Positions 1-12,543 of a stretch of DNA of 41,833 bases are shown in pieces. The stretch lies in assembly GCA_043777635.1 (NCBI GenBank), contig JAYWHS010000602.1, positions 1 through 41,833 of the forward strand. The letters are read 5' to 3'. Positions within the stretch are counted from its first letter, which is position 1; every line of letters starts with the position of its first letter. The translations under genes were made by a program, and so were the position numbers. The DNA is from Kofleriaceae bacterium (GTDB lineage Bacteria; Myxococcota_A; Polyangia; Haliangiales; Haliangiaceae). The notes under the pieces are model-generated. The model was not told where the DNA came from, ran no database searches, and saw only the letters and a list, made by a program, of their open reading frames with translations.

Positions 1-41
1 TGGGCCCTCGCCTCATCAGCAAAATCACCAACGATAGCGGC

Positions 42-1586
42 ATGCAACGCTGGCGCGACACGCCGGCCCCACACAGCTCACCGATCCAGCCACCGCTGCC
101 GCATCCGCGCGAAACGGTAACAGCGCAAGCTGATCAAACCTGGGCCGCAGAGGCGTGTGCGTTGCCGGCGCCAATGGCCAGCACAACTACGGCGCAATTC
201 GCGGCGGCGTTTCGCAACGATGCCAAGCTGCCCATCGCCGTAGCCGATCGCGCGATTGCAGCGATTGCAACCATGGACACCGGCGCGGCCCGCATGGGTT
301 GGTTCATTACCCATCGGCCCGACGATATTCGGCTCGCTGCAGCAGCATCGGCGCAACGCTTTGCGCAAGGCCGACCGCTGTCGATTCTCGACGGTGTACC
401 GGTGGTGCTCAAGGATGAACTCGATCAAGCTGGTTATCCAACGACGCTTGGCACCAAGTATCGCACTACTGAAGCTAGCGCCGATGCCACGGTAGTCGCG
501 CGACTCAAAGCTGCCGGTGCGATCATTCTGGGCAAAGCCAACATGAATGAAATTGGCATCAATCCGATCGGCCTCAACCCTCACTACGGCCCAGCCCGTA
601 ATCCCTGGAACCGCGGCCACATCACCGGCGGCAGCTCAAGTGCATCGGCAGCGACGGTGGCAGCCGGGTTATGTCCGATTAGCATTGGCGCCGACGGTGG
701 CGGCTCGATTCGCATTCCCGCTGCGTTGTGTGGCGTGGTTGGCCTCAAAGCCACGTTTGGCCGCATTCCGGAAACCGGCGTATCGCCGTTGTGTTGGAAT
801 GTGGGTCACGTTGGACCCTTGGGCCTCACCGTCGCAGATGTGGCGGCAGCGTATGCAATCATCGCTGGGCCTTGCGCTGGCGATTCCGTGTCGTTGGCAC
901 AACCGCCGCACCATTTGCACGACCTCGGCAATCAAGACATGCGCGGCATACGGCTGGGCATTTGTTGGCCATACTTTGAAGACGCCGACGACGATGTAGT
1001 GAAAAATTGCAAACTCGCGGTGCAAGCATTGGTTGATCGCGGCGCGACGATTGTCGAAATTGCGCCACCTGAACTCAACATCATCAAGTGGAGCCACGCG
1101 GTGATTATTTTGTCGGAGATGGCCACGGCCATGTTGCCCGATGTAGTCGCCGACAGTTCACGGTTTGCGCTCGACTCACGCACCAACTTGGCGATCGGCC
1201 GGCAACTGCTGGCAACCGATTTAGTGCATGCAATGCGACATCGCCAACACATCACCAAAACCATGCTCGATGTGATGCAAACCGTAGACATTATCGTTAC
1301 GCCGACGACTGCGACGACAGCACCCGCGATTCCTGAGTACGCATTGCCCGACGGTGAAAGTAATTTACCGGTCGTGGATTCATTGATGCGGTTTATTCGG
1401 GTTGGCAACATCACAGGATTCCCCGGGCTTGCAGTGCCGTGTGGTATCGACCAAAAAGGTTTACCGACGAGCGTGCATCTCATGGGCCGGCCGTACGAAG
1501 AAGCGCTGTTGTTGCGGGCCGGCCGGGTGGTTGAACATTTGCGCACCACAGCGTTACCGCAACACCACGTCAATTTGCTAGCGTGA
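42..1586 (+). CDS. Amidase-signature (AS) family amidase
   Basis: 514-aa ORF. 'VVLKDELD' (catalytic Lys), the Gly/Ser-rich 'GGSSSASAA' and 'GADGGGSIRIPA' (nucleophile Ser) match the Ser-cisSer-Lys amidase signature (GatA-like). The start is uncertain: the in-frame ATG at 174 (MASTTTAQF...) is equally plausible. Confidence 0.85.
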   Translation: MQRWRDTPAPHSSPIQPPLPHPRETVTAQADQTWAAEACALPAPMASTTTAQFAAAFRNDAKLPIAVADRAIAAIATMDTGAARMGWFITHRPDDIRLAAAASAQRFAQGRPLSILDGVPVVLKDELDQAGYPTTLGTKYRTTEASADATVVARLKAAGAIILGKANMNEIGINPIGLNPHYGPARNPWNRGHITGGSSSASAATVAAGLCPISIGADGGGSIRIPAALCGVVGLKATFGRIPETGVSPLCWNVGHVGPLGLTVADVAAAYAIIAGPCAGDSVSLAQPPHHLHDLGNQDMRGIRLGICWPYFEDADDDVVKNCKLAVQALVDRGATIVEIAPPELNIIKWSHAVIILSEMATAMLPDVVADSSRFALDSRTNLAIGRQLLATDLVHAMRHRQHITKTMLDVMQTVDIIVTPTTATTAPAIPEYALPDGESNLPVVDSLMRFIRVGNITGFPGLAVPCGIDQKGLPTSVHLMGRPYEEALLLRAGRVVEHLRTTALPQHHVNLLA

Positions 1587-1598
1587 TACCTTTACGGC

Positions 1599-2186
1599 AT
1601 GCAAAAACAAAATCGGGTTGGGATTTGGTTGGCCATCGTTTCCATGTTGGCGCTCAGCGTCGTCAGCGCATGTTCGCGCGATCTGACGCCGTCGGCTGAG
1701 GCTGCTGCGCCGGTGAGTGCAACGCAAGTGGCGACTGTCGCGCCAGCGCCAATCGACCCGTCGATCTATCGCGCACTCGCGCCAGCCGGTACCAGCAACG
1801 ATTGCAACGCGGTCGCTGCAAGCGGCTGCGGTAGCGATTCGGATTGTGCAGGCTACGGCAAATGTTCAAGCGGCAAATGCGGCCACTGCGGCAGCGATTC
1901 GGATTGCAAAGGCAATGGCAAATGCTCGGGTGGGATGTGCAATGCGTGTGGCAGCGATTCAGATTGTGCGTCGGGCAAATGTTCGAGTGGTAAATGCGGC
2001 TCGTGCGGCAGCGACTCGGATTGCAAAGGCGGAGGCAAATGCTCGGGTGGCAAATGTGGCGCGTGCGGTAGCGACTCGGATTGTTCGATCGGCAAATGTT
2101 CAAGCGGCAAATGCGGCTCATGCGGCAGCGACTCGGATTGCAAAGGTGGCAAATGTTCGAGTGGCCGCTGCGGCAACGCACGCTAG
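1599..2186 (+). CDS. Secreted lipoprotein made of six tandem 19/20-aa four-cysteine repeats (CGSDSDC-x3/4-KCS-x-GKCG-x)
   Basis: ATG at 1599, 12 nt after the amidase stop. N-terminal signal peptide with lipobox 'VVSAC', then an Ala/Pro/Thr linker, then six repeats. Composition is C/G/S/D/K with no aromatic residues in the repeats. Confidence 0.75.
   Translation: MQKQNRVGIWLAIVSMLALSVVSACSRDLTPSAEAAAPVSATQVATVAPAPIDPSIYRALAPAGTSNDCNAVAASGCGSDSDCAGYGKCSSGKCGHCGSDSDCKGNGKCSGGMCNACGSDSDCASGKCSSGKCGSCGSDSDCKGGGKCSGGKCGACGSDSDCSIGKCSSGKCGSCGSDSDCKGGKCSSGRCGNAR
1827..2177 (+). repeat. Intragenic tandem repeat, 57/60-nt unit x6
   Basis: Hand-aligned units start at 1827, 1887, 1947, 2004, 2064 and 2121. 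Each begins tgcgg(c/t)agcga(t/c)tc(g/a)gattg. Units are near-identical at the nucleotide level. Confidence 0.85.
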
Positions 2187-2208
2187 GTTGAGGAACGATT
2201 GAAGAGCT

Positions 2209-2233
2209 TAGTCCGCAAGTCCGGTAACCGGAC
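2209..2233. repeat. Two AGTCCGNN units ending in a GTCCGG-TAA-CCGGAC hairpin
   Basis: agtccgca (2209-2216), agtccggt (2217-2224), then taa and ccggac. This gives a 6-bp perfect stem (2219-2224 / 2228-2233) 23 nt downstream of the Cys-repeat gene stop. No T-tract follows, so it is not a canonical intrinsic terminator. Confidence 0.6.
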
Positions 2234-2550
2234 GATGTGCGTTGATAGTGTGAACGGATCGATGATCTGGCGATGCTCAGCGAACTTGGTGGTGGCATGA
2301 TGCCAGCGGCGAGGCACCTACCCCCTGCGATGGCAGTGTGACCGTTCATTCGTGACGCTCGCGCCACCCGAGCATGGCGACTTGCGCTCGTCGCGTGGGC
2401 CCGGAATGAACCACTTGGGGTCCTTTGAACCGGGCACTCTCGACACTCCCTCACAGTCACCTGCCATCTTGGTGGTGGCCGGTGCCCGCCGCTTCCGCGC
2501 CTCGCTTTCATGATCTGCAGAACTCAACTCATTGCCGTCGAACCATTGGG

Positions 2551-2614
2551 CCGCCAGTCCGCCAGTCCGTAAGTCCGTCAGTCCGTCAGTCCGCAAGTCC
2601 GCCAGTCCGTAAGT
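2551..2614. repeat. 8-bp tandem array, 8 contiguous units CCGNNAGT (phase-shifted: AGTCCGNN)
   Basis: Counted by hand. Units have NN = CC, CC, TA, TC, TC, CA, CC, TA, with no spacers between them. Confidence 0.9.
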
Positions 2615-2656
2615 CCGGCGACCGCTGTCCGGCGACCGCTGTCCGAAAGCCGGACA
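2615..2656. repeat. Central linker: 2 x 14-bp CCGGCGACCGCTGT plus a related 14-mer containing the hairpin GTCCG-AAAGC-CGGAC
   Basis: ccggcgaccgctgt at 2615-2628 and 2629-2642. ccgaaagccggaca at 2643-2656. The GTCCG/CGGAC stem at 2641-2645 / 2651-2655 marks the approximate dyad axis of the composite. Confidence 0.85.
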
Positions 2657-2768
2657 CTTTCGGACTTTCGGACTTTCGGACTTTCGGACTTTCGGACTTT
2701 CAGACTTTCAGACTTTCAGACTTTCGGACTTTCGGACTTTCGGACTTTCGGACTTTCGGACTTTCGGA
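2657..2768. repeat. 8-bp tandem array, 14 contiguous units CTTTCGGA (5 units, then 3 CTTTCAGA variants, then 6 units)
   Basis: Counted by hand. The reverse complement of the unit (phase-shifted) is AGTCCGAA, the same core as the left array but in opposite orientation. The array ends 4 nt before the hisS stop codon (tca at 2773-2775 on the + strand). Confidence 0.9.
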
Positions 2769-2772
2769 GTCC

Positions 2773-4146
2773 TCAAGCTCCCAATAACGCCTTAACCCTC
2801 GCGACCAATTCAGCGCGCGGCACACTCACTTCATTCTCCGCCGTACCGACCTCAACTTTTAGATTCTTGATCTTCACAAGCCCGTCGGCTTGTTCACGAC
2901 CACCGACGAGGATCGCAAGCGGCACATGGGCCCGGTCGGCATATTTCATCTGCTTACCGAGTTTGTCAGCACCACCATAAACCTCCGTATTAATACCGGC
3001 CGCACGTAACTCAGTCGCTATCGCAGCATATTCGCCAGCCATGCCAGCTTCGACGTTGAGCACCAACACTTGTGCGATGGAAACGTCGTCGGCTTTAATG
3101 ACGCCCATTTCAAGCAATTGCGAAAACAAACGAGTCGCACCGATCGAAATGCCAACGCCAGGCAATTTAGATTTGGTGTAGTGCCCAGCCAAGTTTTCGT
3201 AGCGACCGCCGGAGCAAATGCTGCCGAGCTTGACGTGCTCGTCGAGAAACGTCTCGTACACCGTGCCCGTGTAATAATCGAGGCCGCGCACAATCGACAG
3301 ATTCAAACGCAAGGCTTGTGCTGGCACCCCAAGCGCCAACGTACCTTCGTACACCGTACGCAATTCAGCTAAGCCTTCATCAAACACTGGATTTCGACCT
3401 TCAAATGCGTCGAGCGCAGCCAACGTTGCAAGTGAATCACCGACGTGTGACGTCATCAACGCGATCAACTTTTCAGCAATCTCAGCCGTCAACCCAACGC
3501 CTTCGGCGCAAAGCCGCGCCAACACTTCGGCTCGATCCATTTTGCCGAGCCGGTCAACTTCGTGCAGCACTGCGGCCTGCGCATCAGCGCCAACAATGCC
3601 AAAACCGTCGAGCAAGCCACGCAGCAACTTGCGATTGTTCAGATAAATCGTGAATGCACCGAACCCAAGTTCACGAAAGATGCCGTAGATCACCGCCGGC
3701 AATTCGACATCGTAGGCCAACGGCAATGTGTCTTTGCCGACGACGTCGATGTCACATTGGTAGAACTCGCGGTAGCGGCCCTTCTGGTTGCGCTCACCGC
3801 GATACACGCGCTGTATTTGATAGCGGCGAAACGGAAAGTTCAGTTGATTTTCGCGCTGTGCAACGTATCGCGCCAACGGCACCGTGAGATCAAAGCGTAA
3901 AGCCATCTCAGGCGTGTCACCTTGCTTGAGCGCGCCAGTCGATTGCACGAAGTACACTTGCTTTTCGGTTTCGCCGCCGGACTTGGTTAAGAGCACGTCG
4001 GTCATTTCAAATACCGGCGTCTCCACCGGCAGATAGCCAAAACGTTCGAAGCCACGCCGAACCGTGTCGAGCATGCGCTGAAAAGCGATTTGTTGTTGCG
4101 GTAACAGTTCCATCACGCCTGCCGGCGTGCGCGGTGCAATTGCCAT
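2773..4146 (-). CDS. hisS: Histidine--tRNA ligase (class II HisRS)
   Basis: The N-terminus 'MAIAPRTPAGVMELLPQQQIAFQRML...FGYLPVETPVFE' and motifs such as 'FRRYQIQRVYRGERNQKGRYREFYQCD' and 'GGRYENL' are typical HisRS. The track ORF begins at a TTG (4182), and the ATG at 4146 gives the canonical N-terminal length. The C-terminus is an anticodon-binding domain. Confidence 0.95.
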   Translation of the reverse strand: MAIAPRTPAGVMELLPQQQIAFQRMLDTVRRGFERFGYLPVETPVFEMTDVLLTKSGGETEKQVYFVQSTGALKQGDTPEMALRFDLTVPLARYVAQRENQLNFPFRRYQIQRVYRGERNQKGRYREFYQCDIDVVGKDTLPLAYDVELPAVIYGIFRELGFGAFTIYLNNRKLLRGLLDGFGIVGADAQAAVLHEVDRLGKMDRAEVLARLCAEGVGLTAEIAEKLIALMTSHVGDSLATLAALDAFEGRNPVFDEGLAELRTVYEGTLALGVPAQALRLNLSIVRGLDYYTGTVYETFLDEHVKLGSICSGGRYENLAGHYTKSKLPGVGISIGATRLFSQLLEMGVIKADDVSIAQVLVLNVEAGMAGEYAAIATELRAAGINTEVYGGADKLGKQMKYADRAHVPLAILVGGREQADGLVKIKNLKVEVGTAENEVSVPRAELVARVKALLGA

Positions 4147-4203
4147 GCGGGTTTCTACCACAACCGACCGAGAATTCAGCAACGTGGTCTATACTCCGCC
4201 GCG

Positions 4204-6138
4204 ATGGATTCCAGCGAACGCGTAAATATGCCCGCGTGGCAAGGCCAAGCCGGCCACTACGAGATTTGGTTCGTCGTGGTATTCGACCGCGATCACGATC
4301 GCGCGTCCTGGCTGCGCTACTCCACGTTCGCACCCGATGACGGCAGCGCTGCAACCTCGATGGTCTGGGCCGCAGATTTTGACGCTAGCCGTACGCCGCC
4401 GACGATTTGGGCCAAAGCCCACCATGCCATCAGCGAATACCAAGCCGCCACCGATCACTTTTCGGTCGCGATTGGCGACACCCAGATTCGCCACGGCCAC
4501 TGCTCGGGTAATGTAATCACCAGCCACTCCGATCTCAAGTGGAGCTTCGACTACAAGATGGGCACCGCGCCGGTACGCCGCACCCCAGCCATGCTCGAAC
4601 AAGTGCGGCAGACCACCGAAACCGTACACGCCTGTACCGACGCACCATGCATCGGCTTCATGGAAGTGAACGGCACCCGGCACGAGGTGCGCAACGGCAC
4701 GGCCGTGCAAATGCACTTACATGGCACGCGACGGCTCGACGATCTGTCTTGGATTTGGGCACCAGCGTTGCATCCTGGCCCGGCCACCGTTGAAGTAATT
4801 TCGGCGCGCGCCAAAACTGGTTTCAGTTTGCGACCGTTCACCACGCCGCGCATGACCTCACTATTTTTTCGCCATCAAGATGAAGTGGACGACCTGACCC
4901 AATTCCCCGATGCCATGCGGCCGACGGTCACGCATCCAGGCCCAGGTATCGTTGAGGTTGCGCATACCAGCGTGCGCCGCGCGATTCGCATTCGCAGCTA
5001 CGCCCCGCTTGAAACCTTTGCGGCTTGGGCCTTCCGAAATCCGTCGGGTAAAGATTTGTATGTCGCACAAAGCGATATCGCGTCGTGTACCGTTGAGAGT
5101 TTTGAGCGCCGCCACCCGTTCGCGCCGTGGCACACCAAAGCTATTTTCAGCACACGACATCGTAGTGCGCTCGAACTACATGGCGTCAAACCGATCGATG
5201 GGCTGGGGTACGTTGGTTGGAACGATACCGAACCACCGGCGTTGACCAAACGCTCGCCGCGCGAAACACCGATGGCCCCCACTGGCAGCATGCGCGAGCT
5301 ACCTGCGCCCAATCAAATTGTCGGCGCTGGCACCACGTTTAAAGAAACCGCCACCGACGCTGGCGTGTATATGTTTCACAAAGGTGACGCTGCGTTTTTA
5401 GCACCGCAACCAAGCGTGCGTGAACGCGCTGTATTGATGCCGACCCAAGCCCAGTTGCGTGCCGCACTCACACGCTGTGAACCTGGCCTTGACGCGGTGT
5501 TGGCCGAACGTTATCCATATTTACCGTTATTGCTCGACTATGAAGTCGAGCTGGTCATGATCGTGCTTGAACCCATGACCAGCGACGAGCTGCGCGCCGG
5601 CAAGCCACCCGCCGTAGGTTGGGCCCTGGGCAATGATATGACCTCACGGGCCTGCCAATTCCTCGGCGATGGGCAAATCAATCGAATGGAATTTTGGTCG
5701 ATGTCCAAAAGCTTTCCAGGTTTTTTGCCGGTGAGCCGGCAGATGTGGGTGCCTGCAACACCGGTGGATGCTGTACCAGACGTGCGGCTGCGCACCTGGG
5801 TCAACGGTGATGTGCGGCAAGACACCGAAGCTTCACAGATGGCGGTCACGCCGTGTCAGATTTTGGCGTCGGCAACCGAACTGCTCAAACGCGATTTGGT
5901 CCCAGGTGATTTTGTATTGTGCGGCACCCCTGCAGGGCTTGCACTCAAAGTGCCACAATGGCGGCGTCGCCTCGCTGGTATGAGCAGCGATCGCTTCAGC
6001 AAACTTGACGCCGCGATCAAGATGTACGTCGAAGGTGCTGGCTTTTTGCGGGCCGGCGATGTGGTTGAAATCGACGCTGGCTTCATTGGCAACGATCGCG
6101 TCCGCATTGAAATCAGCAACGATTCGAGCGCTCCTTAA
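4204..6138 (+). CDS. Two-domain protein: uncharacterised ~350-aa N-terminal domain fused to a fumarylacetoacetate hydrolase (FAH) family domain
   Basis: The C-terminal half carries FAH-family motifs 'LLDYEVELVMIV' and 'GDFVLCGTPAGL'. I do not recognise the N-terminal half ('GHYEIWFVVVFD...'). The stop TAA overlaps the next ATG (TAATG at 6136-6140). Confidence 0.75.
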   Translation: MDSSERVNMPAWQGQAGHYEIWFVVVFDRDHDRASWLRYSTFAPDDGSAATSMVWAADFDASRTPPTIWAKAHHAISEYQAATDHFSVAIGDTQIRHGHCSGNVITSHSDLKWSFDYKMGTAPVRRTPAMLEQVRQTTETVHACTDAPCIGFMEVNGTRHEVRNGTAVQMHLHGTRRLDDLSWIWAPALHPGPATVEVISARAKTGFSLRPFTTPRMTSLFFRHQDEVDDLTQFPDAMRPTVTHPGPGIVEVAHTSVRRAIRIRSYAPLETFAAWAFRNPSGKDLYVAQSDIASCTVESFERRHPFAPWHTKAIFSTRHRSALELHGVKPIDGLGYVGWNDTEPPALTKRSPRETPMAPTGSMRELPAPNQIVGAGTTFKETATDAGVYMFHKGDAAFLAPQPSVRERAVLMPTQAQLRAALTRCEPGLDAVLAERYPYLPLLLDYEVELVMIVLEPMTSDELRAGKPPAVGWALGNDMTSRACQFLGDGQINRMEFWSMSKSFPGFLPVSRQMWVPATPVDAVPDVRLRTWVNGDVRQDTEASQMAVTPCQILASATELLKRDLVPGDFVLCGTPAGLALKVPQWRRRLAGMSSDRFSKLDAAIKMYVEGAGFLRAGDVVEIDAGFIGNDRVRIEISNDSSAP

Positions 6139-7115
6139 TGCGCTGGCGACGAGGCTTGCTGGTAGCCGCCGTCGCCACTGTTGTTGTCAGCGCTTGCCAC
6201 GCGCCGGGGGCGACCAACCCTGCAATGCACCCCACCCTGCCCGCACCATCGAATGCCTCGCCGGTAGCGCAGCCGTCACCGTCGCTGCACCCCAGCATGA
6301 CCACCGCGCCATCTGTTGATGCCGTGATCACCGCACCGTTGCTATTTGCGGCATCCCGCGACGGGCGCACCACGTACCTGCTAGGCACCCTGCACCGCGG
6401 AGTCGACGCGCACCAGCTACCGCCATGGGTTTGGCACCATTTCAATACTGCGACAACGCTTGTGATGGAAGCCGATGCGAACGATCCAGCGTTGCAGCGC
6501 GCCATGGTTCGCAGTGACGGCTCGACGCTGCGCGACGAACTTGGTGCCGACACGTGGCACCGCTTGGAGCGCGCGCTCGGTGCAGATGCAGCCTACCAAC
6601 TCAACGATTTGCCCGTGCCCATGGCGACCATGGCGATTGCGCTAACCGGGTTGCCTGAAACCCAAGCAATGGATGCCACGCTCGCCGAGGCAGCCGACGC
6701 ACTGCACAAGCCCATCATGTTTCTTGAACCCATGACGGTACAACTTCGACTAGCGACTACATGGCTGGATGCATCAGCCTTAACGTCCATGCTTGACGAT
6801 TTTGCGTTAGTACCGCAACGCAATCGCGAATTGTTGCAAGCGTATCAGCGCGGCGAACTGGCAGGCCTCACGCAGGTAGTCAGCGACGGTCGTCAGGATT
6901 TTTTGCGGACCGGCCGTCCCGCCCAGCAATATGACGCCATGATGACCGAGCTGCTCAGCCAGCGAAATCACATGTGGGTGCCAGTAGTAGAACAGCTGCA
7001 CCGCACCGGCCAAAGCTTCATTGCCGTCGGAGCGTTGCACCTATCGGGGCCCAACGGACTCATCGCCCTCCTCGGCCGCCGAGGCTTTGTCGTGACCCAG
7101 CTCAAACAGCCGTAA
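6138..7115 (+). CDS. TraB/GumN (Tiki-like) family lipoprotein
   Basis: Signal peptide with lipobox 'VVSAC'. 'LLGTLHRGVD', 'LVMEAD' and C-terminal 'FIAVGALHLSGPNGLIALLGRRGFVV' match the GTxH...E...GAxHLxGxxG pattern of the TraB/PrgY/GumN family. Confidence 0.8.
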   Translation: MRWRRGLLVAAVATVVVSACHAPGATNPAMHPTLPAPSNASPVAQPSPSLHPSMTTAPSVDAVITAPLLFAASRDGRTTYLLGTLHRGVDAHQLPPWVWHHFNTATTLVMEADANDPALQRAMVRSDGSTLRDELGADTWHRLERALGADAAYQLNDLPVPMATMAIALTGLPETQAMDATLAEAADALHKPIMFLEPMTVQLRLATTWLDASALTSMLDDFALVPQRNRELLQAYQRGELAGLTQVVSDGRQDFLRTGRPAQQYDAMMTELLSQRNHMWVPVVEQLHRTGQSFIAVGALHLSGPNGLIALLGRRGFVVTQLKQP

Positions 7116-7147
7116 AGTAGCTATTTCCGAGCCCGCAAAACTGAAGT

Positions 7148-8257
7148 ATGAATGCAAGTGGAGGATCTATGTTGCTACGCTTTTGTCCGCGCACTGCTGT
7201 TTTAGCCCTGAGCTCGTCGATGTTAACCGTCGGGTTGCTCGCGAGTTTGGTTACAGGTTTCGCCACCGGTTGTGGCAGCGATTCGCCTGCCAACGGTGAC
7301 GCCCCCAAAGGCGCCGACGCCGGAACCGATGCCCCTCCTGGTGCCACCTTCAAAATTAACTGGGGCCCACTATCAGTACTACCTGGGCAAGAAGACACTC
7401 GCTGCGTCGATGTTAGCGTCAAAAATGCAGCCGCGATTAAAGTTCACTCGATGCACAACAAGTTGAGCAATGGCTCGCATCACTTGATCGTATATCGCGT
7501 GTCGTCGGTTACCTCAGAATCGTTGACCCCAACACCATGTCAACCATTCGCCGGTACGTTAACCGGCGGCGGCACGACCCCGATCATGATCACCCAAAAG
7601 AAAGACGATTCATTGACGCTGCCCGACGGCGTCGCCTACACATTTGCAGCCAATCAGTTCATTCGGTTGGAGATGCACTACATCAACACCACCGATGCAC
7701 CGATCGACATTACGGCAACGTCGGAATTCGTCACGATGCCAGCTGCCGACGTAAAGAACGAAGCTGATTTTCTATTCATGGGTACGCCTGACATCGAACT
7801 CGCGGCCGGCCAAACCCAAACCATTCGTCGGTTTCTCAAAATGCCAACGTTTTTGGCCAACGCCAACATCTTTGCCATCACCGGTCACACCCACAAGATG
7901 GGCACCGACATGCAAGTGGGCTACTCCAACGGATTCATGATGCCCGTGACGTCCGTGTACAAACCAGCCGCATTCAATTGGGACGAGCCAGACACCACGT
8001 TTGCGACCCCACCGTTCAAGATCCCAGCCAACGGTGGATTTGATTTCCAGTGCAGCTATACCAACACGTCGGGCGGCCCAGTGGGCTTTGGAGAATCGGC
8101 CAACGACGAAATGTGCTTCTTTTGGGCCTACTACTACCCATCGGTTGGCTCGCGGGTATGCGCGGTAACGACTCAAGTCGGCGGGCCCGAAGGCTTCAGC
8201 GTTTGCTGCCCAGATCCATCGAACCAAGCTATCTGCGATCGCCTGTTAAATAATTAA
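7148..8257 (+). CDS. Lipoprotein with PHM/DBH-like copper type II ascorbate-dependent monooxygenase fold
   Basis: Lipobox 'GFATGC'. 'GSHHLIVY' (H111, H112), 'RLEMHYIN' (H177), 'ITGHTHKMG' (H247, H249) and 'NDEMCFFWAYYYP' (M322), numbered from the 7148 start. An alternative start ATG at 7169 is preceded by GGAGGA (7160-7165). Confidence 0.7.
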   Translation: MNASGGSMLLRFCPRTAVLALSSSMLTVGLLASLVTGFATGCGSDSPANGDAPKGADAGTDAPPGATFKINWGPLSVLPGQEDTRCVDVSVKNAAAIKVHSMHNKLSNGSHHLIVYRVSSVTSESLTPTPCQPFAGTLTGGGTTPIMITQKKDDSLTLPDGVAYTFAANQFIRLEMHYINTTDAPIDITATSEFVTMPAADVKNEADFLFMGTPDIELAAGQTQTIRRFLKMPTFLANANIFAITGHTHKMGTDMQVGYSNGFMMPVTSVYKPAAFNWDEPDTTFATPPFKIPANGGFDFQCSYTNTSGGPVGFGESANDEMCFFWAYYYPSVGSRVCAVTTQVGGPEGFSVCCPDPSNQAICDRLLNN

Positions 8258-8272
8258 TCAGCAGCGTTGCAG

Positions 8273-8965
8273 TTAGCCGAGCAAATCATCGATGGCGCCG
8301 ATCACTGGCGGCGGAATTTCATGACCGCCGGAAAATGGCACCCAGGTAACATCAGCGCCAGCATCACTGAGCAGGTCTGAAAGTTCCTCGGCAATAAAAA
8401 AAGGCAACAGCTGATCGCGGCGGCCGTGGCTCATAACAATTGGGCAACCCTTGAGTTTGGGCATGCGCTTTTGCCATGCAGTAGAATTCAACAACGTGCC
8501 ACTCATGAGGATCAAGCCATCGGGTCGCTTGTCGCGATACAGCGCAGCGTCGAGCGCCAACATGGCGCCTTGCGAAAATCCACCGAGGATAACTTTGCTG
8601 GGTTTGTATTGCAGGATTAACGCATCGAGCAGCGCGTTGACTTTGCGTCGCGCATCCGACAGCCCTTCGGGTATCTCACCTCGGCGATCGCGTGGCCGGC
8701 CCGACGCAATATCGCGTTCGAGCGCTTCGAGATCAAGCCGCCACCACGCCCGCGAATCGCCGTAGAGGCCGCCGAGTTCGAGCGGCGCTTCAGGCATCGC
8801 GAAACGGGTTGGCCCTGCGCTGCGCACTTCTTGCGCCATCGCCACCAAATCATTGCCAGGTGCACCAAAACCGTGCAGCAGCACCACCAGGGCAGCTGGA
8901 TCTTGAGCGGGATGGGTCAACCAGACGTTCAGTCCAGCGATCGACTCGGTAGATGACATGTTCAC
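8273..8965 (-). CDS. Phospholipase/carboxylesterase family alpha/beta hydrolase
   Basis: 'VVLLHGFGAPGNDL', nucleophile elbow 'GGFSQGA' and C-terminal 'FSGGHEI' (His) fit an Abhydrolase_2-like protein. The track start is a GTG (8965); an ATG lies at 8959. Confidence 0.85.
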   Translation of the reverse strand: MNMSSTESIAGLNVWLTHPAQDPAALVVLLHGFGAPGNDLVAMAQEVRSAGPTRFAMPEAPLELGGLYGDSRAWWRLDLEALERDIASGRPRDRRGEIPEGLSDARRKVNALLDALILQYKPSKVILGGFSQGAMLALDAALYRDKRPDGLILMSGTLLNSTAWQKRMPKLKGCPIVMSHGRRDQLLPFFIAEELSDLLSDAGADVTWVPFSGGHEIPPPVIGAIDDLLG

Positions 8966-9022
8966 ACAGCATCACGGCACGCCATGCTTGGCAAGTCGCA
9001 GTGAACCAGAGATGATAGCAGC

Positions 9023-9805
9023 ATGGCACCAGCGACCGTGACGGCCTTGGGAATTGTGGCGGCGATGGCGGGGTGTGGCGCGGCGCAAACCAATGCCCTG
9101 CCACCTGCATCCAATGACCACGGCATATTTACGTTGCGGGTAAACAATGAGCCGCACGGCAGCGAGAATTTCACCATTGTAAAACGCGGCAGCCAGATCC
9201 ATGTAGGCTACCAAAGCAAACTCGACTTGGGTGGCGCTAACGGCAGTGAACAAAGCCGTGGCGACATGGTGTACGCCAGCAATTGGCAGCCGCTCACGGG
9301 CACCATCACCGCCCGAAACAATCTCGAATCACGAACGGTAAAGCTCGGCGGGCAGCCGTTAGCGCTATCGACTCAAACGATGCCCGGTGGCATGGTCGGC
9401 ACAATTACGTCGAAGCGGCCACCTGACATCTCGCTGGCCGACGACAGCGTGGTGCAATTCACAGCGTTTTGCGCCATCCAACGTACCGGGTTACTGCAAG
9501 TCTTTCCTGCGGTAAAAGCCGTGGTGACCGAACAAGCGCATCAGCATAATCTGCGGCGGTATGCGATTGATCTTGAAGGCAAAGGCGTGGTTCGCGCGTT
9601 ATGCGTTGGCGCGCAATTGGTAGGCATTGAAGAAACCACCCACAATTTTTCGGCAATGCGCGTCGGGGCTGAAGCGCAAGTCGCGGCAATTCTAGCGCTG
9701 CCGCCAACGACGACTGCGGGAACACCGCCGACCACCCCAACACCGCTGCCGCTTGCACCTCCGCCGACTGGTCAAACTCCACCAGCGACGCCATCCACCC
9801 CATGA
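9023..9805 (+). CDS. Lipoprotein of unknown function with a Pro/Thr-rich C-terminal tail
   Basis: Signal peptide with lipobox 'AAMAGCG'. The tail is 'PPTTTAGTPPTTPTPLPLAPPPTGQTPPATPSTP'. The stop overlaps the next start (ATGA at 9802-9805). Confidence 0.6.
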   Translation: MAPATVTALGIVAAMAGCGAAQTNALPPASNDHGIFTLRVNNEPHGSENFTIVKRGSQIHVGYQSKLDLGGANGSEQSRGDMVYASNWQPLTGTITARNNLESRTVKLGGQPLALSTQTMPGGMVGTITSKRPPDISLADDSVVQFTAFCAIQRTGLLQVFPAVKAVVTEQAHQHNLRRYAIDLEGKGVVRALCVGAQLVGIEETTHNFSAMRVGAEAQVAAILALPPTTTAGTPPTTPTPLPLAPPPTGQTPPATPSTP

Positions 9806-11133
9806 AACAAAGGGCGCCAGGACATGGTCCATCGCGCCGCGATTGGCTGCGCTGGCTTGCGATATCGAGCGCAAGCCTTGGCATCGCTGCGAGCTGCGGT
9901 GACAACGCCACGCAAAACCCTGCGCCCCGCGATATCACCGCCGCTGTGATGGAACCTGCGCCCGATGGTTTTGTCGTCGCGGTCTGGAGTGGACAAACCG
10001 TGATGGCCTTCGTAACCGTCGAAGACGAGCTATCCGGCATCGCCATGGCCAGCCAAATTCATCACATCGCGGCTACCAGCAGTGCGCACGCTTGGTTTAC
10101 GGGGTTGACGCCAGCGACGCGTTACCGCGTGCGCGTGGAGTTTGCCAATGGGCGCGAATTGGGGCCGTATCTGGCGCAGACGCGGCCACCACCTGACCGC
10201 AACACGCCGCTGCGCCTGTTGATTGCGGCTGATATTGATCCATCGCCTGACTATGAATCGCCAATTTTCTCGACGATGACTGACTACGCTGCTGACTTGG
10301 CGATTTCGATCGGCGATTTCCCATACGCCGACAACGGCCCTAACGTCGCAAAGACGGTTGCCGACTATCGCGCCGTGCATGCCGATGCGCGATCGACGCC
10401 AAAGATTGCACGTTGGCTTGCGTCATCAACGCTATGTGCGATCTATGACGATCACGAATTTCGCAACGATTGGGCCCCGCGCTTTGTCGCAGCCGAAGCC
10501 GATCGTTATGCCGCTGCGATGCAGGTCTACGATGAATTTTTTCCACAACCCGGCGCGGCCCCGAATATACGTTACCGGGTCTGGCAGTGGGGCACCCAAG
10601 TCGATGGCTTTATGCTCGATTGTCGACGGTTTCGAGCTGAGCCAAGCGACCCGGCAGGGCCGCAGAAATCGATGCTTGGCGCAATTCAAAAGCAATGGTT
10701 CTTGCAGCGCCTAGCCGCGAGTACCGCGCCGTGCAAACTGATTTTCACCTCGGTGCCCCTCGATTTTGGCAACGGCAACGAACATTGGAATGCGTACGCC
10801 CATGAACGGGAAGAAATATTTGCAGCGATCAGTGCCGCTGATATTCGCGGGGTCGTTTTTGTTAGCGCCGATCAACATTGGTTTGAAGCGCGGCGCTACA
10901 GCAACGGTGCTCGGGAGTTTCAAATCGGCGCGGTAGCCCGTGGCATTGGTGAACCACCGCCGATGCGGGCTGGAATTTTGGGCCGGGCGTTGACGTATAA
11001 TTTTGCCACGCTGGAAATCGCCGACGGGAAGATGCTGGTGCAAGATTTTGATGCTGATGGTACGCAGCTGTACGCGGAGAGGCTTGATGCAGGGAGTTTG
11101 CGAATTATGCAGCGGGGATCGCAGCGGATATAG
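9802..11133 (+). CDS. PhoD-like phosphatase/phosphodiesterase, Tat-exported lipoprotein
   Basis: Twin-arginine signal 'SRRDWLRWLAISSASLGIAASC'. Metallophosphatase motifs 'IGDFPYAD', 'YDDHEFRND' and 'VFVSADQHW' are typical of the PhoD family. Confidence 0.85.
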   Translation: MKQRAPGHGPSRRDWLRWLAISSASLGIAASCGDNATQNPAPRDITAAVMEPAPDGFVVAVWSGQTVMAFVTVEDELSGIAMASQIHHIAATSSAHAWFTGLTPATRYRVRVEFANGRELGPYLAQTRPPPDRNTPLRLLIAADIDPSPDYESPIFSTMTDYAADLAISIGDFPYADNGPNVAKTVADYRAVHADARSTPKIARWLASSTLCAIYDDHEFRNDWAPRFVAAEADRYAAAMQVYDEFFPQPGAAPNIRYRVWQWGTQVDGFMLDCRRFRAEPSDPAGPQKSMLGAIQKQWFLQRLAASTAPCKLIFTSVPLDFGNGNEHWNAYAHEREEIFAAISAADIRGVVFVSADQHWFEARRYSNGAREFQIGAVARGIGEPPPMRAGILGRALTYNFATLEIADGKMLVQDFDADGTQLYAERLDAGSLRIMQRGSQRI

Positions 11134-11162
11134 GCAAGACCGCGCAGCGCGGCGCAGGAGTG

Positions 11163-11206
11163 GGTGAATGGGGGGTGAACGGTCGGTGAACGGTCGGTGA
11201 ACGGTC
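11163..11206. repeat. 11-bp tandem repeat GGTGAACGGTC x3 preceded by one degenerate copy
   Basis: Perfect units at 11174-11184, 11185-11195 and 11196-11206. The degenerate copy ggtgaatgggg is at 11163-11173. The array lies 30 nt downstream of the PhoD-like stop. Confidence 0.85.
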
Positions 11207-11375
11207 GGCTCACAGCAGCTCCGGCGGGAGCGAGTTGGAGCTTGAACGGGTGCACTGCGGCTGGCCGCGCGGCCGCGTAGGTTTGTGCTCGCGCGTCGCC
11301 TGATGCGCCGCCGTCGCGTCGCGGGTATTTGATACCGGAGCCTGGCAGATGGGGTATCGATGGCTAGATGACTAC

Positions 11376-11403
11376 ATGTCCGGTTTCGGACGTATTATTT
11401 TTC
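11376..11403 (+). terminator. Possible intrinsic terminator (short hairpin plus T-rich tail)
   Basis: GTCCG-GTTT-CGGAC (11378-11391), extendable by A:U and G:U pairs, followed by gtATTATTTTTcaATTTTa. The stem is short and lies about 245 nt after the PhoD-like stop, so support is weak. Confidence 0.35.
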
Positions 11404-11460
11404 AATTTTATAGATATTTTTCAGATTTATGTTGACGTAATTTTTATACGAGAAATTGCA
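11392..11460. other. Sharp AT-rich tract in an otherwise GC-rich window
   Basis: 'gtattatttttcaattttatagatatttttcagatttatgttgacgtaatttttatacgagaaattgca' is very AT-rich by eye. It lies upstream of the decayed HNH gene. It contains TTGACG (11432-11437), but I could not pair it with a convincing -10 element. Confidence 0.5.
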
Positions 11461-11615
11461 GTGCCTACGTGTAGCGGGTGAAACGCTCGTGTAAGGCGAC
11501 GAAGTGGGCGATGCGGAACGATGGGCTGGATCGGCGGATTTTTCTCGTTGCAATGTTGGTTCGCGGCGCAGTGAGCCAGCGGTAGCGTCGAAAAAACCGA
11601 TGATAGAGTGATTCT

Positions 11616-12543
11616 ATGGAACAAGGTACAGAGGTGAAGGTAGCCCTCGACGTTGATGTGCTTGGGGACCAAATCGCTGAAATGTCAGCGCATATCGACG
11701 CTGCGATGCATCGGTTGTTAACGGCGATTCGGGAATTCGACATTGCCTCGGGCTGGCATGTGCAAGGCGCGCTGTCGTGTGCACATTGGTTAGCGTGGCG
11801 AGTTGGCTGGGATCTTCGGACGGCCCGGGAACGAGTGCGGGTTGCACGCAAGTTGGCAGAACTGCCGCTGGTCGACGAGGAATTGCGCCGTGGAGCAATG
11901 TCATATTCGCAGGCCCGAGCTATTTCGCGAGTGGCGAAGGCTGAAAACGAAAAGCTCTGGGTTGGGTACGCCAAGCACATGCCGGCGTCGCAGCTGGATC
12001 ACAGGTCGGAGGCTGGAGCAATGGCCGGAGCGATAGCGGCGGCACAAGTCGCCGCGCAGCGCACGGTGACTCGGCGAAGTCTCGATAACGGCATGGTGAA
12101 GTTTGAGGTTGTACTTGCAAGTGATGAAGCGGCGATCGTTTGGGCGGCACTCAATGCTGCGATTGCGCGATCGTACGTGTCGTTTTCCAGGTTGCTCACA
12201 CAGCCGTTACGTCGACGGTCATCACATCGAACACTGGGCCAACGGCGGCAAAACGGCGTTGTCTAACCTTATTTTGTTATGTAGCGCCCACCATACGCTG
12301 CTGCACGAAGGCGGCTGCCGCGTCGAATCCAACGGCACCAATGGCTGGGATTTTTTCGATCATCGCTCCAGGCTCATCGACGCACAGCCAGCCCGCACAA
12401 CGCCGAACAACATTGGTGCACGACATGGCCTCGCTTCGTTACACGATGCTCATGCGGCGCTCGCCATCACGGCCAATACCAACGCATCGAATTGGACTGG
12501 CGAACCGATCAACTATTCGACGTGCATCGACTACTTGGTGTGA
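11616..12543 (+). pseudogene. DUF222/HNH endonuclease gene, frameshifted and apparently internally shortened
   Basis: Frame 1 (11616-12266) encodes a DUF222-type N-terminus ('...AHWLAWRVGWDLRTARERVRVARKLAELPLVDEELRRGAMSYSQARAISR'). The HNH core 'RDRTCRFPGCSHSRYVDGHHIEHWANGGKTALSNLILLCSAHHTLLHEGG' is in a different frame (ORF 12103-12543). The switch must occur near 12140-12180. Confidence 0.7.

Follow-up and report, generated by a model that had tools for sequence, protein, structure and literature searches.

The window analysed here is a 41,833-nucleotide stretch of a Kofleriaceae bacterium (GCA_043777635.1, contig JAYWHS010000602.1, positions 1 to 41,833). It carries two opposed arrays of 8-bp repeats directly past the 3' end of hisS, in the 586-bp gap that separates this gene from a convergent gene for a Cys-rich repeat protein. 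The original prediction had attributed the arrays to hisS. They are instead the right-hand end of a non-coding element of about 560 bp (2210-2768) that fills the whole gap and whose further copies adjoin unrelated genes, and they probably represent the fast-changing tail of a lineage-specific intergenic repeat. Along the plus strand, the features of the locus are:

1599-2186, plus strand: convergent Cys-rich repeat gene with a lipoprotein-like product, in no Pfam family.
2210-2233, plus strand: left end of the element, a mini-copy (AGTCCGCAAGTCCGGTAACCGGAC) unseen in the original prediction, 24 nt past the stop of the Cys-repeat gene.
About 2253-2545, strand unassigned: conserved non-coding core of about 290 nt, folding as a rod about 220 nt long, with nine further copies.
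2551-2617, plus strand: core-proximal arm, 8 x AGTCCGNN (Tandem Repeats Finder: period 8, 8.4 copies).
2613-2645, plus strand: 14-mer block, 2.4 copies of GTCCGGCGACCGCT (period 14, 100% matches).
2641-2655, strand unassigned: small central hairpin GTCCG-AAAGC-CGGAC, around which the quasi-palindrome turns, of a type that recurs beside other copies.
2656-2768, minus strand: hisS-proximal arm, 14 units, with the minus-strand reading AGTCCGAA (period 8, 14.1 copies, 98% matches).
2773-4146, minus strand: hisS, histidyl-tRNA synthetase (Pfam), 457 aa from an ATG at 4146; the longest open reading frame (ORF) reaches 4182.

The layout of the double array is exactly as predicted in coordinates and counts: eight units, the 14-mers, the hairpin, 14 opposed units and then four bases (GTCC, 2769-2772) before the hisS stop codon (TCA at 2773-2775, TGA on the minus strand). 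AGTCCG hexamers in the left arm begin at 2556, 2564 and so on to 2612, and the two variable bases (NN) of its AGTCCGNN units read CC, TA, TC, TC, CA, CC and TA, followed by GC at the junction. On the plus strand the right arm consists of five CTTTCGGA, three CTTTCAGA and six CTTTCGGA. Read on the minus strand, it contains three contiguous central AGTCTGAA units, a block that looks like a local unit duplication, and starts with a single ACTCCGAA. With at most one mismatch, AGTCCGNNAGTCCG occurs 19 times against 0.11 expected by chance. The two arms are 76-86% complementary in every 8-nt register, in keeping with the earlier proposal that they could pair in many registers. The suggested folding of the minus-strand RNA gave -139.7 kcal/mol (z = -9.7), with -120.6 kcal/mol (z = -8.0) for the plus strand and -69.4 kcal/mol (z = -11.3) for the double array folded as DNA. 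The array lies 3' of both stop codons, inside neither a reading frame nor a promoter spacer.

We place the element at 2210-2768 because the homology of two paralogous loci (L133 and L155) to the window begins at 2210. At this left end (2210-2233), two AGTCCG units lead into a small hairpin, GTCCGG-TAA-CCGGAC. The element then proceeds from this AGTCCG/hairpin module through the core of about 290 nt and the AGTCCGNN microsatellite to a second small hairpin of the form GTCCGG-loop-CCGGAC. A protein-coding core was considered and rejected: no frame is open in all three of the three copies compared, substitutions are spread evenly over codon positions (26/25/22) and the length of a mini-ORF starting MAGDC... 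is unconserved. Rfam 15 gave no match at gathering score across the whole window, and at E values up to 10 the interval 2150-2800 returned chance matches only (E >= 2.7).

On either strand the core folds into a rod of about 220 nt, with 65 and 63 consensus pairs on the two strands. In the core alignment, 96.2% of cells are paired, compared with 36-45% when the partner is slid, and 15 cells are changed on both sides, a number reached in 0 of 500 shuffles. These compensatory changes are concentrated in helix 6, which occurs in the states GUG/CAC, AUG/CAU, GCG/CGC and GCA/UGC. The strand is ambiguous: wobble-only pairs exist on each, and the consensus energy is -56 kcal/mol on the plus strand versus -72 kcal/mol on the minus strand.

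Nine further copies of the core, at 77-91% identity, were found in JAGPDK01, a sister Kofleriaceae metagenome-assembled genome (MAG) with conserved gene order and a hisS that shares 94% of its protein and 86% of its DNA sequence with that of the window. An invariant 18-mer of the core, searched against the genome collection, hit nine JAGPDK01 contigs and otherwise chance matches; the same 18-mer gave 29 matches among metagenome contigs, with the core in none of them. An nhmmer search with the core over about 2.5 Mb of collected sequence recovered the known copies alone, and plasmid and phage collections yielded no core match. Because the JAGPDK01 copies are mutually 77-91% identical and none are near-identical, the element has undergone no recent burst.

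Every copy whose 3' flank lies inside its contig shows the same succession in one orientation: core, a CCATTGG-like junction and (AGTCCGNN)n. In the JAGPDK01 copies n ranges from 1 to 14, NN is CA, AA or CC, and several contigs end within arrays. Arrays of AGTCCG units occupy at least 12 loci in this genome; the small hairpin with an opposed second arm is found at three of its loci (L083, L153 and the core-less contig L127), and arrays unaccompanied by a core occur at L127 3548-3577 and at the L359 junction described below. On its left, the core is preceded by the AGTCCG/hairpin module in the window, L133 and L155, and by an expanded (CAACG)n array in L083 and L148. In the latter two, the core left end AACGCAACG has grown into pentamer arrays (L083 6900-6970; L148 548-600), and both ends of the element can therefore seed microsatellites. 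Hairpins of the type GTCCG-loop-CGGAC occur five times in the window, where 0.39 would be expected, and a survey of 106 kb from the two genomes counts 18 of them; small GTCCGG hairpins stand 14-30 nt past several stop codons.

Four of the five copies with both flanks resolved sit between convergent genes (window, L133, L146, L147), the fifth between genes in tandem (L083). A stop codon lies 1-4 nt from the start of the array in the window and in L133. The genes beside the copies are mutually unrelated: hisS, a RimO/MiaB-like gene, TatC, an SMC-like ORF of 1,391 aa (named from sequence), a DUF58 protein and a 23S-rRNA-IVP gene. The Pfam scan covered ten window ORFs (42-11980) and ten copy-flanking ORFs, some of which belong to no Pfam family, with the ORFs beside L142 and L148 outside its scope; among these 20 ORFs there was no transposase, RAYT, reverse transcriptase, ribbon-helix-helix protein or ParA.

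The arrays also differ in length among close strains. Two other assemblies, L358 and L359, encode a protein identical to the annotated 457-aa HisS (the 469-aa product of the longest hisS ORF had no match in the same kind of look-up). Their hisS-proximal arms consist of 15 (L358) and 10 units (L359), against 14 in the window. L358 is 99.9% identical to window positions 1-7146 (7.1 kb) and includes the complete element. L359 (ENA ERZ28573637) is 99.96% identical from window position 7146 down to 2688, that is, to the array; its ten units are followed by a diverged hairpin (GTATCCGGTTCTCGGAC), after which the DNA is unrelated and carries another convergent gene, the switch lying inside the (AGTCCGAA)n array at 4375-4500 versus window 2688-2772. 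Real or chimeric, this junction implies a second locus with (AGTCCGAA)n plus hairpin in the species of the window.

In the sister species (L001/L204, hisS 86% identical in nucleotides), hisS is followed by GTCCGGAAACCGGAC and then at least 17 x CGGACTGG, a lower bound since the contig ends inside the array, without a TCCGAAAG arm. In the congener L360 (hisS 87% nucleotide identity) both genes are present, 275 nt apart, with neither array nor core between them; the spacer, the sole comparable site lacking the element, is unrelated and offers no readable clean junction. More distant relatives among those compared have no element after hisS. Copies, species and assemblies with identical HisS all differ among themselves in the number of units and in the two variable bases. 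The length polymorphism that the original prediction had asked for in related genomes is present, and its suggestion of a slipped-strand hypervariable locus is supported by 14, 15 and 10 units beside identical HisS proteins, at least 17 of another variant in the sister species and 1-14 in the paralogues. Free variation in, or absence from, close relatives was a refuting condition set by the original prediction itself. Being freely variable in near strains and absent from the congener L360, the array does not fit any role that needs its exact form.

Two further observations concern the same position in other Kofleriaceae. In L002 (hisS 73% identical), a 16-nt tandem repeat, (GCGGAGGGTGTCCCGA) x 6, lies at 5372-5490, directly past the hisS stop, and in L361 the hisS 3' position is taken by the remnant of an IS4-like transposase. 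The hisS 3' flank seems to collect insertions in this family.

That the array arose as an assembly artefact is hardly conceivable. Tandem repeats do break short-read assemblies, as the several sister-MAG contigs that end inside arrays illustrate. Nevertheless, L358, an independent assembly of an independent sample, has the whole structure with one unit different, a third sample (L359) has the proximal arm, and the arm measures 112-120 nt, less than the k of 141 to which the L358 contig name (k141_797701) points.

Taken together, these data make it probable that the double array is the expanded, fast-changing tail of a lineage-specific, non-coding, multi-copy intergenic repeat, in which a small hairpin has seeded an 8-nt microsatellite. 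The 8-nt unit would correspond to one hairpin arm plus loop (GTCCG + AAA), and arrays would expand and contract by replication slippage and by unequal or ectopic recombination. At the hisS copy both arms of the small hairpin would have expanded, producing a quasi-palindrome with many pairing registers. The element may persist, or be tolerated, owing to its location in promoter-free gaps, mostly between convergent genes. Read-through from hisS or from the Cys-repeat gene would yield a long imperfect RNA hairpin that could hinder RNA polymerase or 3' exonucleases; such hindrance would be a structural by-product, independent of the exact array, through which the element may have a terminator or RNA-stabilising effect.

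Several points weigh against this explanation. The core is not drifting freely: its paralogues are 77-91% identical with long invariant blocks, at least three independent compensatory pair changes fall within one core helix, and the orthologous spacer downstream of hisS is, unlike the core, unalignable between congeners. Because the invariant blocks persist although that spacer cannot be aligned, the core must be under some constraint, for which a dispersed repeat does not account. The array follows every readable copy, which could reflect functional coupling to the core, and the remaining copies all come from one fragmented relative. The one-unit difference between 14 and 15 could be a short-read assembly error, and the L359 junction may have arisen by rearrangement through the array or by chimeric assembly across the repeat. 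Slippage, finally, is a process that we infer for the arrays.

The constraint on the core bears on two other explanations. In one, the core of about 290 nt is an undescribed unit maintained by selection, either a structured RNA or a single-stranded DNA substrate of an enzyme recognising GTCCGG hairpins, and the arrays are products of its activity, made for example by repeated duplication of 8-bp targets or by templated addition, in place of passive slippage. We regard this as decidedly unlikely; if true, the array would be a readable record of element activity. In the other, to which we assign a slightly smaller chance, the core is the functional unit as a structured non-coding RNA family or as a non-autonomous mobile element served by a dedicated RAYT/TnpA-like enzyme, and the arrays are either functional themselves or scars, for example accumulated 8-bp target duplications. 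The invariant blocks and compensatory changes of the core favour such a unit, the orientation of core to array is uniform in all copies, and AGTCCG units with GTCCGG hairpins flank the core on both sides in the window, L133 and L155. However, Rfam has no counterpart even at E = 10, no promoter-like site is present and the strand is ambiguous (-56 on plus versus -72 kcal/mol on minus). Near-identical copies, which would signal recent mobility, are lacking, terminal inverted repeats or target duplications cannot be defined, the Pfam-scanned copy-flanking ORFs include no transposase, RAYT or reverse transcriptase, and arrays exist without a core (L127 3548-3577 and the L359 junction).

The original prediction also proposed an unusual bidirectional terminator or a stabiliser of the hisS 3' untranslated region. 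The very stable fold agrees with this proposal, whereas the terminator scan detected no site in the gap 2187-2772 and no T-run lies 3' of the hairpin on either strand. A promoter scan of 1500-4500 likewise returned no promoter-like site. In its selected form, this explanation holds that the element is a bidirectional terminator or insulator that also stabilises the 3' ends of both convergent genes, its hairpin halting polymerases and blocking 3' exonucleases. Both strands do fold very stably, the structure fills the whole convergent gap and begins 4 nt past the hisS stop, four of the five resolved copies separate convergent genes, and small GTCCGG hairpins follow several stops at 14-30 nt. Yet a U-tract is absent on both strands, near-identical strains differ in arm length, the sister species lacks one arm, the congener L360 has the same two genes without any of the structure, and most paralogous copies carry a single array and are unable to form the long hairpin. 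We therefore consider a selected terminator unlikely.

A third proposal was that the contiguous units form a cooperative array for a sequence-specific protein of the ribbon-helix-helix type. The omega heptads, the ParG sites of parH and the 8-bp metboxes of MetJ are operator or centromere arrays of such proteins, composed of contiguous 7-8-bp sub-sites. The present array resembles them in its contiguous short sub-sites in direct and inverted orientation, and a fixed hexamer accompanied by two free bases would be compatible with recognition of a short site. The omega, ParG and MetJ arrays, however, lie at promoters or by par genes with a defined number of sites, whereas the present arrays lie at 3' ends between convergent genes and are unstable, with 1 to at least 17 units that change among near-identical strains and with variable bases that are free. 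No ribbon-helix-helix protein, ParA or other candidate partner is encoded by the ten window and ten copy-flanking ORFs scanned; the nearest scanned neighbours of the window array encode an amidase, HisS and an FAA-hydrolase-domain protein. Nor is AGTCCG enriched elsewhere in the window: the element excluded, it occurs at 10 sites, whereas 14.6 are expected for the window as a whole. A protein-binding array is accordingly highly improbable. The same lack of enrichment led us to reject AGTCCG as an over-represented genome word of the DNA-uptake or Chi type.

Among known repeat systems, the closest likeness is to dispersed long-unit simple sequence repeats (SSRs), such as GGGAATC in Xanthomonas, GGGGA(C/T)T in Nostoc and the STRR heptamers of Calothrix, whose function is unknown (PMC4692102). 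The dispersed 7-nt repeats of Xanthomonas and Nostoc are mostly intergenic, lie on average 28 nt from the upstream ORF and vary in length between close relatives (PMC4692102). Like these SSRs, the present arrays consist of head-to-tail, genome-specific units in the 7-9-nt range, are dispersed and mostly intergenic near the end of an upstream ORF, and vary in length and sequence between close relatives; a head-to-tail unit, many loci per genome and length variation between relatives were all found here. They differ in that the unit is 8 nt and not G-rich, so that no quadruplex is expected, and in that the arrays are tied to a hairpin core of about 290 nt and to GTCCGG hairpins, with opposed arms possible.

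Features are also shared with repetitive extragenic palindromes (REPs) and their BIME and REPIN assemblies (PMC3116915, PMC2817692): short GC-rich extragenic hairpins, often past stops and between convergent genes, arranged as mosaics of alternating orientation and preserved by compensatory changes. In contrast to REP/BIME, the present element shows about ten copies and not hundreds, and REPs have neither 8-nt microsatellites nor a 220-nt rod. The GTAG/CGTC tag of REPs is not a consistent feature: CGTC overlaps the stem at window 2219, L001 and L144 and is missing at the stem at window 2641, L083, L123 and L155. The present element resembles miniature inverted-repeat transposable elements (MITEs; PMC3184786) in being small, non-coding, multi-copy, structured and intergenic, but its copies are old (77-91% identity) and come without identified terminal inverted repeats, target duplication or parent insertion sequence. 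Its paired arms are internal to the core (columns 98-317 of alignment A2), and its outer ends carry direct, not inverted, AGTCCG units.

Conserved modules joined to modules of variable number are known from other elements as well. This organisation, together with long imperfect palindromes, is shared by the present element with BOX of Streptococcus pneumoniae and with ERIC/IRU. BOX is built as boxA-(boxB)n-boxC, and ERIC/IRU are imperfect palindromes of transcribed intergenic DNA. Neither is related in sequence to the present element, whose repeated module is 8 nt, not 45 nt, and stands at the end. The stem plus U-tract of an intrinsic terminator, the in-frame or promoter repeat of a contingency SSR and the location of a ribbon-helix-helix operator are all lacking, the arrays lying between convergent 3' ends. 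In the literature, the exact repeat strings matched no paper, and queries for octamer or myxobacterial repeats led to general work on REPs, MITEs and SSRs; none of it described the element.

Octamer arrays with the same unit are widespread in other phyla. In the genome collection, (AGTCCGAA)n of at least 3.75 units occurs at 60 loci, mostly in Bacteroidota (Mucilaginibacter, Pedobacter, Chitinophagaceae), and AGTCCGNN arrays at more than 113 loci, among them loci in Actinomycetes, Planctomycetota and Cyanobacteria; some of these loci share the opposed-arm layout. In the viral collection, the AGTCCG core was found at 12 loci, compared with 14, 10 and 26 for three composition-matched shuffled hexamers, a control that is indicative and not exact for the genome collection, as it was run on viral sequences. 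Within 442 kb, the Bacteroidota loci contain some 90 further arrays, whose units measure 5-12 nt and are mostly 7-8-mers. Because AGTCCG is no commoner than its shuffles and arrays of 7-8-nt units are abundant, the unit shared by these phyla is probably a coincidence and does not define one family. A universal AGTCCG motif was rejected on the same grounds, shuffled cores being equally common in viral contigs.

These loci have features of their own. In Mucilaginibacter, L085 1213-1350 (orthologue L097) carries two opposed four-unit AGTCCGAA arrays separated by a 78-nt spacer, 138 nt in total, in frame within a valS-like frame open for 937 aa (named from its translation alone), an arrangement that recalls the in-frame palindromic elements of Rickettsia. 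The AGTCCGAA unit is stop-free in all six frames, and arrays inside ORFs are mostly in the sense orientation, in which they encode SPKVRKSE. At other Bacteroidota loci (L087, L099, L130, L136, L091, L101, L104, L116, L118 and others), sense (AGTCCGAA)n arrays begin 3-12 nt past stops, with a G-run before the array; many of these arrays are accompanied by a degenerate opposed array 55-100 nt downstream or by an ordinary terminator hairpin. Orthologous Bacteroidota loci retain the (AGTCCGAA)n array with 4 to 15 units and contain many other 7-8-nt arrays. In Planctomycetota (L215, L205, L211, L218), opposed (AGTCCGGA)n and (TCCGGACT)n arrays stand about 100 nt apart, and in Microcoleus (L206, L227, L235, L239, L242), AGTCCGNN arrays are followed by the hairpin CAGGGGTTGAAACCCCTG. 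Both layouts resemble that of the window, though the phyla are unrelated.

Within the window itself, the convergent Cys-repeat gene encodes a product of 195 aa built from CGSDSDC...GKC repeats, with DNA repeat periods of 57-60 and 117 nt. At 11134-11464 lies another gap between convergent genes that also holds a tandem array: (GGTGAACGGTC) x 4.2 at 11163-11208, 30 nt past the stop of a PhoD-like gene, accompanied by a GTCCGGTTTCGGAC hairpin at 11378-11391 and an AT-rich stretch. This array has no related copy among the collected loci.

The kind of element described here is a known one; what is new is a constrained 220-nt hairpin core joined to an octamer array capable of growth on both arms of a small hairpin. 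Octamer arrays of any given core are common across bacteria, and a unit common to several phyla is not evidence of relatedness. Arrays of this kind interrupt assemblies from short reads and, as the L359 junction suggests, may give rise to rearrangements or chimeric joins, which makes them relevant to the quality of MAGs, and they would be good markers for strain typing. The constrained core is a candidate new non-coding RNA or mobile-element substrate. For the Kofleriaceae, what seemed a special signal of hisS is one instance of an undescribed intergenic repeat family of these myxobacteria.

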